64,000 bases of DNA from Candidatus Eiseniibacteriota bacterium. GTDB lineage: Bacteria; Eisenbacteria; RBG-16-71-46; CAZAMP01. How positions within the stretch are numbered: the stretch's first letter is position 1; each line of letters starts with the position of its first letter. Below the pieces are notes generated by a model. That model ran no database searches. It had not been told where the DNA came from and saw nothing but the letters and a program-made list of their open reading frames with translations. A program made the position numbers and the translations under genes. This document shows, in pieces, positions 6,164 through 26,545 of the stretch. The stretch spans positions 3,520,001 to 3,584,000 of the forward strand of contig OZ245046.1 in assembly GCA_965224245.1 (NCBI GenBank), read 5' to 3'.

Positions 6164-7529
<1,366 letters not shown>

Positions 7530-21249: not shown

Positions 21250-22272
21250 TCACGTCCGGCGAGCCCGGTTGTGCGCCACCGCGCGGGCGTTCCGGCGCAG
21301 ACCGTCGACCCCCGCGCGCCGCATCGCGCTCCCGGCGATGCGCGCGTCGAGGTCCTCGTCGGACGCGTCGATCCACTCCGAGAGCGGCCGCGAGGTGACG
21401 TGCGCGCGTTCGGCGAAGTCGGGCTCGCGGGTCGGGGCGGCGAACGCGTTCCACGGGCACACCTCGAGGCAGATGTCACAGCCGAAGAGGTGCTCCCCGA
21501 TGCGCTCGGCGTCGGCGGGCCCGAGCTCGCCCCGGTGCTCGATGGTCAGGTACGAGATGCAGCGGCGCGCGTCCATCACGTAGGGCTCGGGAAACGCGCC
21601 GGTCGGACACGCGTCGAGGCAACGCGTGCACGACCCGCAGAAGTCGAGGTGTGCCGCGTCGCCCGGGAGCTCGACATCGGTCAGGATCTCGCCGAGAAAC
21701 GTCCAGCTTCCGAGCGAGCGGCTGACGAGGTTCGTGTGCTTGCCCCGCCAGCCGAGCCCGGCTCGCTCGGCCCATGCCTTCTCGAGAATCGGGGCGGTGT
21801 CCACGGCTACGCGCGTGCGGGCCCCGGGCACGAGCTCGGCCACACGAGTGGCCAGCGTGGTCAGCTTGCGCCTCAGAACACGGTGGTAGTCGCGGCCGCG
21901 GGCGTAACGTGCGATGCGAGGCGGCGCGTCGCCACCGGCCGCCGCCACCGACCCCCGGGAGCCGCTCGCGTCGGGACGGTCGGGACCGGCCTGCGCCGCC
22001 GTCTCGCGTCTGCGACCGGTCTCGTGACCGTAGCCGTGCGCGACGCAGATGACGCTCCGGGCACCGTCGAGGAGGTGCCGCACGTCGGCACGAAGCGCCC
22101 GCAGGCGGGCGAGGTAGTCCATCGTCCCGTGACGGCCACGTGCGAGCCACTCGTCGAGCCGGGCGGCCTCGGCGTCCAGCGGCACGGCGGCCGCGACCCC
22201 GAACGCGTCGAAGCCGAGCGCGCGTGCCTCGTCGGCGAGTCGCGATCGCAGCTCGTCGGCCCGGAACGTCAT
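21250..22272 (-). CDS. queG: tRNA epoxyqueuosine(34) reductase
   Basis: IARYARGRDYH, VDTAPILEK, CGSCTRCLDACPT, CISYLTIE, GCDICLEVCPWN. Confidence 0.95.
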   Translation of the reverse strand: MTFRADELRSRLADEARALGFDAFGVAAAVPLDAEAARLDEWLARGRHGTMDYLARLRALRADVRHLLDGARSVICVAHGYGHETGRRRETAAQAGPDRPDASGSRGSVAAAGGDAPPRIARYARGRDYHRVLRRKLTTLATRVAELVPGARTRVAVDTAPILEKAWAERAGLGWRGKHTNLVSRSLGSWTFLGEILTDVELPGDAAHLDFCGSCTRCLDACPTGAFPEPYVMDARRCISYLTIEHRGELGPADAERIGEHLFGCDICLEVCPWNAFAAPTREPDFAERAHVTSRPLSEWIDASDEDLDARIAGSAMRRAGVDGLRRNARAVAHNRARRT

Positions 22273-22706
22273 TCCGAGTCCAGCTCGCGGTCGTGCGCGT
22301 CCTTCTGCCGCATCGCGGCCTCGATCTCCTCCCGCGCATGGAGGCGGCCCCGACCGATGCCGCTGCAGAACGAGCGGACCTCGGCGTTCCAGGCGGCCCG
22401 CTCCATCGTCTCGGGCCAGAAGGGCCACGTGCGACACGGGACCGGCCGAACCGGGTAGATCGTGCACCGGCAGTCGGAGAGGAACTCGCAGGCCCCTCCC
22501 CGCGAGCGCGCGATCAGGTAACCGTCCTCGTCGCGGAGGTGTCGCCGGCGCAGTGCCGTCAGCGACAGGCCGAGGTGACGGGCCAGCGCGCGGGCCTCGC
22601 GCCGCGTGAAGTAGACGCGATCGTACTCACCGTGGTTGTGGCAGCAGTCACCGCCCTCCCGGCAGCCGAACCGCACGCCCTCGGCGTACCACGCCCCGTC
22701 ACCCAT
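22269..22706 (-). CDS. YkgJ-family cysteine-cluster protein
   Basis: FGCREGGDCC, CEFL, CTIYPVRPVPCRTWPFW, CSGIG. Confidence 0.88.
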   Translation of the reverse strand: MGDGAWYAEGVRFGCREGGDCCHNHGEYDRVYFTRREARALARHLGLSLTALRRRHLRDEDGYLIARSRGGACEFLSDCRCTIYPVRPVPCRTWPFWPETMERAAWNAEVRSFCSGIGRGRLHAREEIEAAMRQKDAHDRELDSE

Positions 22707-23946
22707 CGATGATCGCCGATGCGAACGAGACGACCGAGCCGTCCTCGACCCACTGGTGATAGGCGACCACGTCGGCCTCCCGCTGGCCGGTCCAGGCCAT
22801 CGTCGCGTAGACGGCGCTCAGCCCGCAGATGCGCCGCGGGTTGCCGTCCTCAGAGACCGACCGGAAGAACGCGCCCGAGTCGCCGGCCGCCACCGTCTCG
22901 AGCGTCTCGCGATCGAGGCCCTCGAGCGCCTCGAGCTGCTCCTCGTCGACCGGCTCGGGATCCTCGAACCGCGGACCGACGTGAGCCATGTCGGCTCCGG
23001 CGATGACCGTGACCGTCAGGTGGCGCTCGCGCGCGGTCTCGGCGATGGCGGTGACCATCGCGTCCACCTCGTCTTGGCGTTCCGGTCGCGTCGGGTCGGT
23101 GTCGGACGGCACCAGCGATCCGCACAGAAAGGGGAGGATCGGAGGCACGCGCTCACCGAACACGTGCCGCAGGTAGACGGCCTGGAACTCCAGGGAGTGC
23201 TCGGTCCGGTGCAGACACTCGTCCGCGAAGAGCTCGCCGGGGTATCGACGCACGATGTCCTCGAGCACCTCCTCGGCCACCGGACACGGGCCCAGCGGCG
23301 TGTCGTACCCGATCGAGCTGGCGATGAACAGCTCGTGCGTGAGCGCGTGGGCGGTGCCGAACAGCACGACCACGTCGGGACGCGCGTGTCCGTTCGCGAA
23401 CGCGGCGTAGGCCGCGGCGTACGTCGTCTCGGCCACGCGGAGATCGATGTGCGGCACGATCAGGCCGAGCGGCGGATCTCGGCGAACGGCGAGCGGGATC
23501 GCTCGGAACGACGAGGCCAGCTCGCGCGAGAGCTCCGATGCATCCGCGGAGTAGCTCACCCCGGCGAACGCCGGTGCGCGCCGTCCCTGCTCCCGGTAGC
23601 CGGCGTTCGCCGCGCGGCGGCGTGCCTCGAAGCGAGGCGAGTCGAGGAAGCCGTGCTCGTCGAGGCCTCGCACGAACCCCTCGACCACGTCGCGGCTCGC
23701 GTCGATGGCATGCCGTTCCCGGATGGCGCGGACGACGTCGTCGAGCGTCCGCGTGCCGTCGAAGCACTCGAGCAGCACCGACGACATCGGCGTCATCGCG
23801 ATCGGAGCGTCGACGATCCCGGTCGGATCCTCCAGGACGAGCTGTGCATCGTCGCCCTGCCCGACCAGATGGTGCTGCACCGGCCGTAGCCGGGGCCGGA
23901 GCGGGATGGCGCCGCTCCCGCCCGACGTGTCGGAGATGTCTGTCAT
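22699..23946 (-). CDS. Memo1-family protein (AmmeMemoRadiSam protein B) with N-terminal extension
   Basis: PAFAGVSY, IVPHID, GTAH, EHSLEFQ, ADMAHVG, ICG. Confidence 0.88.
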   Translation of the reverse strand: MTDISDTSGGSGAIPLRPRLRPVQHHLVGQGDDAQLVLEDPTGIVDAPIAMTPMSSVLLECFDGTRTLDDVVRAIRERHAIDASRDVVEGFVRGLDEHGFLDSPRFEARRRAANAGYREQGRRAPAFAGVSYSADASELSRELASSFRAIPLAVRRDPPLGLIVPHIDLRVAETTYAAAYAAFANGHARPDVVVLFGTAHALTHELFIASSIGYDTPLGPCPVAEEVLEDIVRRYPGELFADECLHRTEHSLEFQAVYLRHVFGERVPPILPFLCGSLVPSDTDPTRPERQDEVDAMVTAIAETARERHLTVTVIAGADMAHVGPRFEDPEPVDEEQLEALEGLDRETLETVAAGDSGAFFRSVSEDGNPRRICGLSAVYATMAWTGQREADVVAYHQWVEDGSVVSFASAIIDG

Positions 23947-24566
23947 CCGGATCCGCCTCCCTCCTCACCGGCGTGACGGAGCCAGCGGAAGACCCCGTGC
24001 ACGCGCGTGGCCGGGCGCGCGTCCGGCGTATCGGGTCGTGCGACTCCGGCGCCCGTCGCCTCGGCGCGGGAGTCCGGTGCGGACGGACGGCCGGACCCGG
24101 TCGACTCGACCCGCACCCACCACACCCGGTCCGTGACGCCCGGCGGATCGGTGGAAACTACCACATCGACGAGCATCGGATCGGGTGGCGCGCCGGGGCC
24201 GGGACCGGGCGTGACCGCGATCCAGCGCTCGGGTCCGAGGAGCCGCCGCGCCGCCTCGGCCCGTCGTCCCCGGTCGACGATCTCGATGCCATCGGCTTCG
24301 AGGGCGCACTCCAGGTCGCCGCGCACGAGGATGACGATCCCGAGCGCCTCCAGGACACCGCGCCTCTCCAGCCAGTGCCGGTCTCCGGCGAGGCGCGAGA
24401 GCCTGGCGGCGTCCACGACGAGCCAGCGGGTCGCCGGATCGAGCGCCTCGACCTGGGTCATGAACGCCGCGTCGTCGTCGTGCCCGTCGTCGCTGGCGTA
24501 GATCGGGGGCGAGGGCGGGCGGTGGTCTGGATCCGGGCGTCCACGCACTGGGCGCCGGTCAGGCAT
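23943..24566 (-). CDS. Hypothetical protein
   Basis: Fills the gap in the operon with overlaps at both ends; no motif recognised. Confidence 0.45.
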   Translation of the reverse strand: MPDRRPVRGRPDPDHRPPSPPIYASDDGHDDDAAFMTQVEALDPATRWLVVDAARLSRLAGDRHWLERRGVLEALGIVILVRGDLECALEADGIEIVDRGRRAEAARRLLGPERWIAVTPGPGPGAPPDPMLVDVVVSTDPPGVTDRVWWVRVESTGSGRPSAPDSRAEATGAGVARPDTPDARPATRVHGVFRWLRHAGEEGGGSG

Positions 24567-25560
24567 GCAGCTCCACGACGTCGCCATCGCTCAGCACGTG
24601 ATCGCGCTGAACGTGCTGTCCGTCGAATGCGCCGGCGCCCCAGATCCGTGCGAACGAGAGCCCCTCGGCGAGCTCCCGGTGAACCGCCTCGGCCAGATCC
24701 AGCACGGTGCTTCCCCGATCGAGGAGGAACGGACTCTCCATGTCGGCCTTCTTGCCCGGCTGCTTCGTGTAGACGCGGACGACCCGGAGGCTCTCGAAGA
24801 TGGCCTGCCGAAGGGCTTCGAGGCCCTCGCCGGTCTCGACCGACGTGCGCAGGATCTCCCAGGGTCGTGAGAGGGACTCCCGGAAGATCTCCTCCCGGAG
24901 GTCCGCACCGTCGTCATCGGCATGCGTGGCCACGAGTAGAGTGGGGCGCTCGAGCACGGGCCCCGCCCCCGCGCGGTCGACGTCCTGCGGCGCAAGCTCG
25001 CGGGCCGGAACGAGCATCGTGTGCCAGTGCTCCAGCACGCCGAGCGTGTCCTCGGTCGTGGTGAGAATGTCGTCGTCGCCGAGGCTCACGACCCAGAGGA
25101 TCAGATCACAGGCCCGGACCTGGCTCTGCATCCACGCCCGCACGAACTCGGACGACACCGCCGGTGCGTCGACCAGCTGCACCTGGACGTCGTCGATCGG
25201 CATCATGCCGGGATGGAAGCGGGTGGTGGTGTAAGGGTACGGCGCGACCTCGGGCTCGGCGGCCGTGAGTCGGTCCATCAGCGCGGACTTGCCCGCGTTG
25301 GGACCCCCCACCAGCACGACCTGCTTGTGCCCGTCGCGATCGACGTACTCGCCGGGGACCCGGCCGCCGGACTTCCGGGTCTCGGCCCCCTGCAGCTTTG
25401 CGATGCGCTTCTTGAGATCGGCCTGGAGCTTCTCGGTTCCCTTGTGCTTCGGGATCAGCCGGAGCATCTCCTGAAGACACGACAGCTTCTCGTCGGGGGT
25501 CGACGCCTCGCGCATGCGGGCTTCGGCCGCCTTGTACTGCGGGGTGAGGTTCGCCGGCAT
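24559..25560 (-). CDS. DRG/Rbg1-like GTPase (OBG superfamily) with C-terminal TGS domain
   Basis: MPANLTPQY, IPKHKGTE, G1 GGPNAGKS, G2 YPYTT, VRVYTK, ARIWG, GQHVQRDHVLSDGDVVELH. Confidence 0.9.
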   Translation of the reverse strand: MPANLTPQYKAAEARMREASTPDEKLSCLQEMLRLIPKHKGTEKLQADLKKRIAKLQGAETRKSGGRVPGEYVDRDGHKQVVLVGGPNAGKSALMDRLTAAEPEVAPYPYTTTRFHPGMMPIDDVQVQLVDAPAVSSEFVRAWMQSQVRACDLILWVVSLGDDDILTTTEDTLGVLEHWHTMLVPARELAPQDVDRAGAGPVLERPTLLVATHADDDGADLREEIFRESLSRPWEILRTSVETGEGLEALRQAIFESLRVVRVYTKQPGKKADMESPFLLDRGSTVLDLAEAVHRELAEGLSFARIWGAGAFDGQHVQRDHVLSDGDVVELHA

Positions 25561-25717
25561 GGACCTTCTCCGGACTCGTGCCACCGGGTCGCGCTCGACG
25601 TCGAACGCGCTCCCACCCCGATGGTGACGAACCGGGACGCCTCATCGCAAGCGCGGAGGACACGGAGGCCGGGTCGTTTCGTTGGTCGACGTCACCGCGC
25701 GACCGGGCGGACCGAGC

Positions 25718-25882
25718 CGTCGCGTGAGGAACGAGGACGTTCCCACATTCCCTTCGCACCGTTGCCGGCCCAAACGACGCTCAGTTCGTTTGTGTGCGAA
25801 GAGCCCCGCGTAACCGATCGGCCGTGCCTCTCCCCTCATCACGTCCGCTCGGCGGGAGCGCGCCACGCTCCTCACGCGACGA
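25718..25882 (-). ncRNA. Putative structured RNA (sRNA or leader) of unknown family
   Basis: 16-bp closing stem (25866-25881 with 25718-25733, one G-U pair), nested 6-, 8- and 7-bp helices and a GCAA tetraloop; the 5' end coincides with the predicted sigma54 +1. Confidence 0.6.
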
Positions 25883-25892
25883 GAGAGCGGAT

Positions 25893-25908
25893 TGCAAGCG
25901 CGGTGCCA
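25893..25908 (-). promoter_or_regulatory. Sigma54 (-24/-12) promoter, full consensus
   Basis: Minus strand TGGCACCGCGCTTGCA = TGGCAC-N5-TTGCA. Confidence 0.85.
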
Positions 25909-26182
25909 TCGGCCACGACGACGTAACCGACGCCCCGACGGTCCGCTGATCGCCGGCCGCGCACCGCGTGGCGTCGCCGCGCCGACACATCGTCGGGTTC
26001 TCGACGGTCCGGGCCCCCACGGGATCGGCGGCGCGCCGGGTCGCCCCGAACAAAACCATTGATCCAACTCTATGAAATGACATAACATACACAGCCATCG
26101 GGATTGATCCGGCGACCTCGATTACCGTCCAGCACCCCATGAGCGGATCTAGCCCTGCATCGGGTACTTACGAGGGGGTCCC

Positions 26183-26545
26183 ATGGATGATCGCCAGGAT
26201 TCGCTGGCATCGCCCTCGCATCCGGGGGGAAGCACGATCACCGTCGAGTGCAATCACGCGCTCACCGACGGTGGTCTGCGTGTGACCGAGATCCGCATCG
26301 CGCTTCGCGGCGAAGACAAATTGAAGGCGTTCGTCAGCGTCACGCTCGAGCGCAGCCTCGTCATTCGTGGAATCAAGATCATCGAGGGTCGACAGCGGCT
26401 GTTCGTCGCGATGCCGAGTCGCTCCAAGACCGACGGGTCGTTCCAGGACATCGTGCATCCCATCAATCAGGAGACGCGCGCACGGCTCGAGAGCTGCGTG
26501 CTCGAGACGTATTACGACGTCGCCGAGACGCGCGAGATCAACTAG
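26183..26545 (+). CDS. spoVG: SpoVG-family nucleic-acid-binding protein (start uncertain, may be near 26282)
   Basis: VTEIRI, KLKAFVSVTL, IRGIKIIEG, LFVAMPSR, FQDIVHPIN. Confidence 0.92.
   Translation: MDDRQDSLASPSHPGGSTITVECNHALTDGGLRVTEIRIALRGEDKLKAFVSVTLERSLVIRGIKIIEGRQRLFVAMPSRSKTDGSFQDIVHPINQETRARLESCVLETYYDVAETREIN

Follow-up and report, generated by a model that had tools for sequence, protein, structure and literature searches.

A candidate structured leader RNA behind a conserved sigma-54 promoter at a GTPase-Memo-QueG locus of Candidatus Eiseniibacteriota

Results

Organization of the locus

The window, which is the whole stretch of 64,000 nucleotides analysed here from the genome of a Candidatus Eiseniibacteriota bacterium (the source genome), contains an intergenic region with spoVG on one side and, on the other strand, an operon that begins with the gene of a TGS-domain GTPase. 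The genes, and the elements of the region that lie outside the promoter and RNA domain described below, are the following.

26183..26545, plus strand: spoVG, the divergent neighbour (Pfam SpoVG, 7.2e-29)
26059..26112, plus strand: conserved 54-nt block, the likely spoVG promoter (TTGATC 26059-26064, 18-nt spacer, TAACAT 26083-26088)
25561..25717, minus strand: rest of the leader, holding a second long-range helix and the ribosome-binding site (whole-leader fold)
25564-25571, minus strand: ribosome-binding site GGAGAAGG, ahead of the GTPase start
24559..25560, minus strand: TGS-domain GTPase (Pfam MMR_HSR1 and TGS), first gene of the operon
23943-24587, minus strand: 214-aa ORF between the GTPase and Memo genes, coding-like by its GC3 of 0.85, no Pfam family
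22699-23946, minus strand: Memo-like protein (Pfam)
21250-22467, minus strand: QueG epoxyqueuosine reductase (Pfam)

The spoVG gene diverges from the RNA and is not a same-strand upstream gene. The 54-nt block ahead of it is likely its promoter, bounding the RNA while lying outside it. The predicted transcription start (about 25882) is separated from the GTPase ATG by a leader of about 320 nt, and in the whole-leader fold a second long-range helix joins GGUCGCGC..UGACGUCGA to UCGACGUCGA..GCGCGACC. Between the RNA domain and the ATG, no terminator-like site was found on the RNA strand and no nearer sigma-70-like promoter, either in the source genome or in its relative G001; the terminator scan recognizes hairpin-plus-U-tract forms only and the promoter scan the sigma-70 consensus only, and neither may suit this phylum. 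The predicted fold of G001 pairs the ribosome-binding site with a nearby CUCCC stretch, a segment that is not conserved, and the leader fold of the source genome predicts no clear masking of the site. Pairing of a CUCUCUC tract with the P2 loop described below or with the ribosome-binding site was considered and rejected because the tract is mostly upstream of the predicted start. A second TGGCAC (25583-25578, minus strand) stands directly ahead of the ribosome-binding site, and CCGCGCTTGC (25656-25647, minus strand), a near-copy of the -12 region of the promoter, is found 240 nt downstream of the promoter; as a second promoter inside the leader they were discarded, being in the wrong order and at the wrong spacing.

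In the N-terminus of the Memo-like protein (residues 50-101) there is a sub-threshold PqqD-like match (21.7 bits, cut-off 23.4), which may be a peptide-recognition domain fused to Memo. The 214-aa ORF has no counterpart in G001, where a 4-nt overlap links the GTPase gene directly to the Memo gene. Conversely, G001 carries between Memo and QueG a Cys-rich ORF of 147 aa (L222:7585-8028), YkgJ-like by eye, and no such separate ORF was seen in the window.

A sigma-54 promoter kept in a relative

25893..25908, minus strand: sigma-54 (-24/-12) promoter, TGGCAC-N5-TTGCA, read directly from the sequence as TGGCACCGCGCTTGCA
25880..25884, minus strand: predicted transcription start, about 25882, placed by the usual spacing from the -12 GC (25895-25894) to +1

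An earlier reading made from the sequence only had proposed a consensus sigma-54 promoter at 25908-25893 on the minus strand, with +1 near 25882. The motif is indeed present there as a perfect match to TGGCAC-N5-TTGCW, its GG and GC one helical turn apart, and it recurs in G001. When the C of the -12 GC (25894) is counted as -12, +1 falls at 25882. No second copy of the motif occurs in the 64-kb window, and in 100 shuffles it never arose. The complete genome of 6.9 Mb has six perfect motifs compared to about four expected from base composition (69% GC; an arithmetic estimate), and thus the count alone indicates no enrichment. A crude open-frame test placed one of the six deep in a 2-kb frame and two outside any long high-GC3 frame, and left three ambiguous; the two free of such frames are the leader promoter and one ahead of a FlgN-like gene. 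Because rpoN is encoded in the source genome (Sigma54_DBD, 220 bits) together with 37 Sigma54_activat genes (29 in G001), many sigma-54 promoters are to be expected in it. Upstream of the promoter, neither a site for an enhancer-binding protein nor a dyad common to the source genome and G001 was identified; the one upstream block with significant conservation (26059-26112) is best read as the promoter of the divergent spoVG gene. The nearest activator gene is at 6576-7079 of the window (plus strand), about 19 kb from the promoter, and none adjoins the RNA. G001 also has an activator gene on the contig that carries the orthologous promoter, about 20 kb away from it.

Among the 60 relatives surveyed, G001 was the sole genome of the same family. 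Its GTPase orthologue is 62% identical to that of the source genome, and identities were 42-52% in the other relatives and 43-50% in Eisenbacteria-labelled records. The genes in G001 follow the order PurF, GatB/YqeY-like, RNase-H-like, spoVG, a 588-nt spacer, GTPase, Memo, the YkgJ-like ORF and QueG, so the divergent arrangement of spoVG and GTPase-Memo-QueG is kept. A perfect sigma-54 motif, TGGCACATCACTTGCA, is found in G001 at L222 5028-5043, and the distance from promoter to GTPase ATG is 304 nt there versus 348 nt here. The flanks of the motif are unalignable between the two genomes (26 shared 8-mers versus 15.6 +/- 5.0 in shuffles), with the exception of a block of 54-55 nt near spoVG, which has a local alignment score of 47 (shuffles 22.5 +/- 3.3, maximum 34) and in whose G001 counterpart the promoter scan calls TTGACC-18-TAACAT pointing toward spoVG. 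The leader segment between the domain and the gene, 158 nt long here and 93 nt long in G001, shows no significant similarity: the local score was 20 versus 17.8 +/- 2.4 in shuffles, 67 of 300 of which reached 20.

We found the motif at 2 of 190 GTPase loci, and these were exactly the source genome and G001; the remaining 188, drawn from relatives, metagenomes and species-representative genomes, had no motif within 1.2 kb upstream. A search for closer relatives by means of the GTPase yielded 80 loci from metagenome contigs and 80 from species-representative genomes; identity did not exceed 52%, and the motif was absent from all of them. A perfect 16-nt motif at the same place in otherwise scrambled DNA provides strong in-silico support for a working promoter, and the sigma-54 promoter at 25908-25893 is very probably real.

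The structured domain

25718..25881, minus strand: domain I, a structured RNA of about 164 nt with the P1 closing helix, P2 hairpin and P3 arm (MFE -84.2 kcal/mol, z -3.90)
25866..25881, minus strand: P1 5' strand of the 16-bp closing helix, CGUCGCGUGAGGAGCG (sequence and predicted fold)
25718..25733, minus strand: P1 3' strand of the closing helix, CGUUCCUCACGCGACG (sequence and predicted fold)
25813..25853, minus strand: P2 hairpin with the 13-nt purine loop AUGAGGGGAGAGG at 25827-25839, in which GGGAGAGG occupies 25827-25834 (predicted fold)
25750..25803, minus strand: P3 arm with the base CUCUUCGCAC/GUGCGAAGGG, the CAAACGA hairpin and the GCAA tetraloop hairpin (centroid fold)

The 5' strand of P1 begins at about +2, twelve bases past the promoter motif. 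The sequence-only reading had described a 16-bp stem directly after +1 and had used its one G-U, which would be A-C on the opposite strand, as support for the orientation; this holds, as CGUCGCGUGAGGAGCG and CGUUCCUCACGCGACG form 15 Watson-Crick pairs and one G-U. The helices that it had nested inside the stem agree in part with our fold. The centroid structure contains CUUCGCAC/GUGCGAAG, the CAAACGA...UCGUUUG hairpin and CCG-GCAA-CGG, but the letters of GGACGU/ACGUCC, although present, compete with the predicted pairing. Each of the two domains, here and in G001, has one GGA in a hairpin loop (P2) and, in addition, two single-stranded purine runs.

The exact domain (25718-25881) has a z of -3.90, with 0 of 200 shuffles as stable, for boundaries that were picked by the helix; with flanks (25700-25885, 186 nt) the value is -1.34, and for the whole leader it is -1.43 in the source genome and -2.33 in G001. 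The opposite strand of the source-genome domain folds nearly as well as the RNA strand (z -3.59). Three distinct inverted repeats as good as P1 (at least 15/16, loop 30-250) occur in the 64-kb window, and P1 taken alone is not exceptional.

The sequence-only reading could match the RNA to no known family, and no Rfam 15 family, 6S included, was matched at gathering score in the whole window. At E <= 10, the region 25400-26300 gave three chance-level matches only, to unrelated families, of which sR19 (14.9 bits, E 0.69) was the sole one on the RNA strand inside the domain. That no credible coding sequence covers the element was also borne out: the overlapping ORFs have a GC3 of 0.66-0.72 versus 0.81-0.89 in real genes and no Pfam match, and the six-frame peptides of the two intergenic regions (source genome and G001) include no credible shared peptide. 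A leader peptide was rejected as well, since the frames that start at the AUG of the P2 loop, 66 codons long here and 26 codons long in G001, give peptides with no similarity. We likewise rejected the idea that the hairpin is one of a repeated family: the genome has 293 copies of GGGAGAGG, a number below that predicted from base composition, and the 8 occurrences in a comparable 13-nt loop are patternless. In contigs from four sequencing runs the element was identical or uncovered, with no variants within it.

The fold in the relative genome

A covariance model (R1) was built from the source domain alone, with its sequence entered twice and its centroid structure, and was run with filters off over 13 kb around the G001 locus. 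Its best full-length match is at L222 5076-5239 on the promoter strand (13.5 bits, E 0.072 over 13 kb; E 0.0037 over the 668 nt of two short spacers) and begins 22 nt past the predicted start. It ranks third; the top two are plain hairpins that match the outer helix only, with about 140 model positions deleted. The reciprocal model (R2), made from the G001 domain alone with its own centroid structure, finds in 13 kb of the source window 25720-25880 on the minus strand as the top match (21.1 bits, E 5.3e-4; runner-up 15.1 bits). As background, R2 was run with filters off over the loci of 25 further GTPase genes from the class, 96,237 nt in total; the best scores were 19.9, 17.1 and 16.9 bits, none reaching 21.1. 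The 19.9-bit match (L055:1302-1466, genome G046) is full length, past the 3' end of the GTPase gene and on the opposite strand, and is probably due to chance. The E-values come from a shortened calibration and, since 19.9 bits arose once in 96 kb, are probably too low by a factor of ten to a hundred. Over a target of a few hundred bases fixed in advance, the R2 match is still roughly at the 1-in-several-hundred level.

The sequence-only reading had proposed to look for compensatory changes in homologues, and the one homologue available keeps the helices with many two-sided changes. In a two-row alignment of the domains, which was fitted to the structure and leans that way, 97% of 100 cells pair versus 42-55% with slid partners. 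Two-sided changes are seen in 21 of 60 pairs of this structure-fitted alignment of two sequences (13 of 22 pairs in P1, 5 of 13 in P2 and 3 of 8 shared pairs in P3), and in P3 the base alone aligns with G001, its distal part being different. Independently of the alignment, the G001 domain has a z of -4.44 on the promoter strand (0 of 200 shuffles) and of -0.58 on the opposite strand. At the place aligned with P2, G001 has a hairpin with the 13-nt loop GUAUUGGGAGAGG and stem letters unlike those of P2, so that the two genomes have in common a 13-nt loop with GGGAGAGGC at its end, on top of stems that differ in sequence. Common to both domains are the closing helix, the 13-nt-loop hairpin, a purine junction ACG(C)GGGG and the base of the third arm.

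Beyond this pair the search was negative. R1 against 61 and a further model, R3, against 151 genomes of the class, plus five further genomes, matched only the two genomes from which the domains were taken, and the weak extra matches of R1 and R3 had no sigma-54 motif nearby; with R1 run genome-wide, the G001 match was not significant and was absent from the list at E <= 10. The two-genome model found nothing in two Krumholzibacteriia-labelled and three Eisenbacteria-labelled genomes, and DNA similarity to the 60 relatives consisted of short GC-rich matches only. The no-match genomes of the relative and class searches include one that is unpublished (G053), on which none of the positive findings depends.

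No single feature of the domain is overwhelming; it is lifted above chance because it is conserved in G001. We consider that the structured domain is probably real and that it belongs to no catalogued family.

Discussion

Domain I as a leader element

The sequence-only reading had left three roles for the RNA, namely small RNA, protein sponge and structured leader of the GTPase operon. The leader fits best, as the scans found no terminator-like site or nearer sigma-70-like promoter ahead of the gene and the promoter stands at 348 nt here and 304 nt in G001 from the ATG; the sponge finds little support, with one GGA hairpin loop. The absence of a recognizable terminator and of a sigma-70-like promoter between the domain and the ATG favours a single transcript that runs into the operon. 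Our preferred reading, offered tentatively and with rather less than full conviction, is therefore that domain I is a lineage-restricted, cis-acting leader element of the GTPase-Memo-QueG operon, which sigma-54 would start. We infer the start site, the read-through into the operon and every functional step.

The leader might operate as follows. One of the many enhancer-binding proteins would turn on the promoter at 25908-25893, and the RNA started at about 25882 would carry a leader of about 320 nt into GTPase, the 214-aa ORF, Memo and QueG. P1 would seal the 5' end and shield the long leader from decay that depends on a free 5' end. The exposed, Shine-Dalgarno-like loop of P2 could then be the place where the 30S subunit docks, or else an RNA-binding protein, for example CsrA, and the occupancy of the loop could set the level of translation at the distant GTPase start. 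In its sequence, GGGAGAGG, the loop is similar to ribosome-binding sites of these loci (GGAGAAGG in the source genome, GGGAGAGAAG in G001 and the GGGAGAGAGAGGAG run before spoVG of G001), and both genomes have genes for CsrA and for a FliW-like partner. It is from this likeness, together with the csrA genes, that the suggested sealing of the 5' end and the ribosome- or CsrA-landing loop derive.

Parts of such a scheme are familiar from other bacteria. Stem-loops at the 5' end stabilize messengers with structured long 5' UTRs, e.g. the ompA 5' UTR and the aprE leader, by means of short and simple hairpins. In a similar way, a helix within 1-3 nt of the predicted 5' end heads the long leader in both of our genomes (P1 in the source genome and a separate small hairpin in G001, according to the predicted folds). 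Unlike those hairpins, domain I is a three-helix domain of 164 nt with a conserved loop. The CsrA-controlled hag leader of Bacillus has one site in an upstream hairpin loop and another over the Shine-Dalgarno sequence, tens of nucleotides apart. Domain I and its operon likewise combine a GGA loop (GGGAGAGG) with a GGA ribosome-binding site (GGAGAAGG; GGGAGAGAAG in G001) in genomes that possess csrA and a fliW-like gene, but the two putative sites are about 200-270 nt apart, unlike those of hag. Purine runs of the GGGAGAG type are the normal ribosome-binding sites at these loci. With 6S RNA (RF00013), domain I shares a similar length and a long closing helix; 6S is one long irregular hairpin with a central bubble, whereas domain I is multi-branched and has no Rfam match.

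Alternative explanations

It is possible, though we regard it as unlikely, that the promoter is real and drives the operon while the structure is incidental, as a GC-rich leader folds strongly without selection. The three inverted repeats of P1 quality in the window would fit this reading, as would z-values of -1.3 to -2.3 once flanks or whole leaders are included, the z of -3.59 on the opposite strand of the source genome, the 19.9-bit full-length R2 match in unrelated sequence and a primary sequence that is not conserved. However, R1 and R2 each find the domain of the other genome as their best full-length match, precisely at the syntenic site; 21.1 bits exceeds everything in the 96-kb background, the stability in G001 is strand-specific (-4.44 versus -0.58), and a 13-nt loop ending in GGGAGAGGC stands on unlike stems in the two genomes.

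A free-standing or processed sRNA, which would owe its 3' end to a non-canonical terminator, to Rho or to cleavage beyond P1 and would act in trans or titrate a protein such as CsrA, seems somewhat more unlikely still. Conservation is confined to domain I and does not extend to the 93-158 nt that separate it from the ATG, so that an RNA released by processing or by an unusual form of termination is conceivable. The domain is also a compact unit with one long closing helix, purine-rich GGA stretches accompany CsrA and FliW-like genes in both genomes, and sigma-54-dependent sRNAs are a known kind according to published accounts of GlmY/GlmZ (PMC3045617), Pxr (PMC5568312) and Qrr (PMC3352281). 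Against this, the standard-form scan shows no terminator-like site after the domain in either genome, the sigma-70 scan shows no separate promoter for the GTPase gene, and the element is single-copy with no further member in about 150 genomes of the class.

Sigma-54-started sRNAs and their regulators include Qrr (Vibrio, LuxO), GlmY/GlmZ (Enterobacteria, GlrR), CrcZ/CrcY (Pseudomonas, CbrB) and Pxr (Myxococcus). Like them, domain I is a structured non-coding RNA immediately behind a -24/-12 promoter, and its genome encodes many enhancer-binding proteins. Unlike those sRNAs, which have their own terminators and act in trans, domain I continues into an operon without a recognizable terminator, and no activator gene adjoins it, the nearest being about 19 kb away. 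Sponges of the CsrB/RsmZ type carry many repeated GGA motifs in hairpin loops; domain I has one such loop (P2) and no repeated array, which is far below their count and argues against titration of a CsrA-like protein.

A bolder version, which we think improbable, is that domain I represents a new class of sigma-54-driven regulatory RNA in a deep lineage of an uncultured phylum. It would be a platform that binds CsrA or the downstream TGS GTPase through its Shine-Dalgarno-like loop and its purine strands, and it could possibly be released as a stable RNA. If the GTPase were the ligand, the operon, whose products include a translation-related GTPase and an enzyme of tRNA modification, would control itself through an RNA that imitates a ribosomal or tRNA site.

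Finally, a mobile or repeated DNA element (MITE- or REP-like, as the 16-bp terminal inverted repeats around about 130 nt would suggest) or a chance promoter match (with a genome count of 6 near the approximately 4 predicted) is very improbable, because the source genome has one full-length copy and otherwise short matches (E at least 0.0046), a structural counterpart with different letters is at the same place in another genus, and the motif is kept in both genomes amid unalignable DNA.

Implications

On the preferred reading, the leader RNA of the GTPase operon is restricted to a lineage and, in the collections searched, to two genomes. Sigma-54-driven structured RNAs are already an established kind, and this element is known from two genomes only. 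If real, it would be an uncatalogued structured RNA together with a sigma-54-controlled, translation-related operon (TGS GTPase, Memo-like, QueG) in a candidate phylum without a cultured model. A literature search under the phylum name brought up ecology and metagenome papers only, and no non-coding RNA is known to have been described from it. The element would also show that a sigma-54 promoter and an RNA fold can persist across genera while the primary sequence scrambles, a kind of case that annotation based on sequence misses.

Other sigma-54 sites in the genome

Three further perfect motifs outside the window deserve mention. At L239:341-515 (G000:C1:4044640-4044814, where G000 denotes the source genome), a strong GC hairpin and then five U come about 137 nt after the motif TGGCACCGGACTTGCA, and the next ORF lies about 90 nt further on. 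This locus has no Rfam match and no DNA match in G001, and the terminator scan did not call the hairpin; it looks like a candidate for a terminator-bearing sigma-54-dependent sRNA. At G000:C1:1316921-1319310, a perfect motif stands 56 nt before the FlgN-like gene. Behind that gene come a FliW-like gene, csrA and a gene with a weak match to the flagellin family (31.5 bits), and from this order the locus is predicted to be a sigma-54-driven fliW-csrA operon. At G000:C1:2290833, the motif lies about 50 nt before a sigma-54 activator gene (AAA+, with a GAFTGA-type region), which suggests autoregulation of an activator placed behind its own sigma-54 motif.
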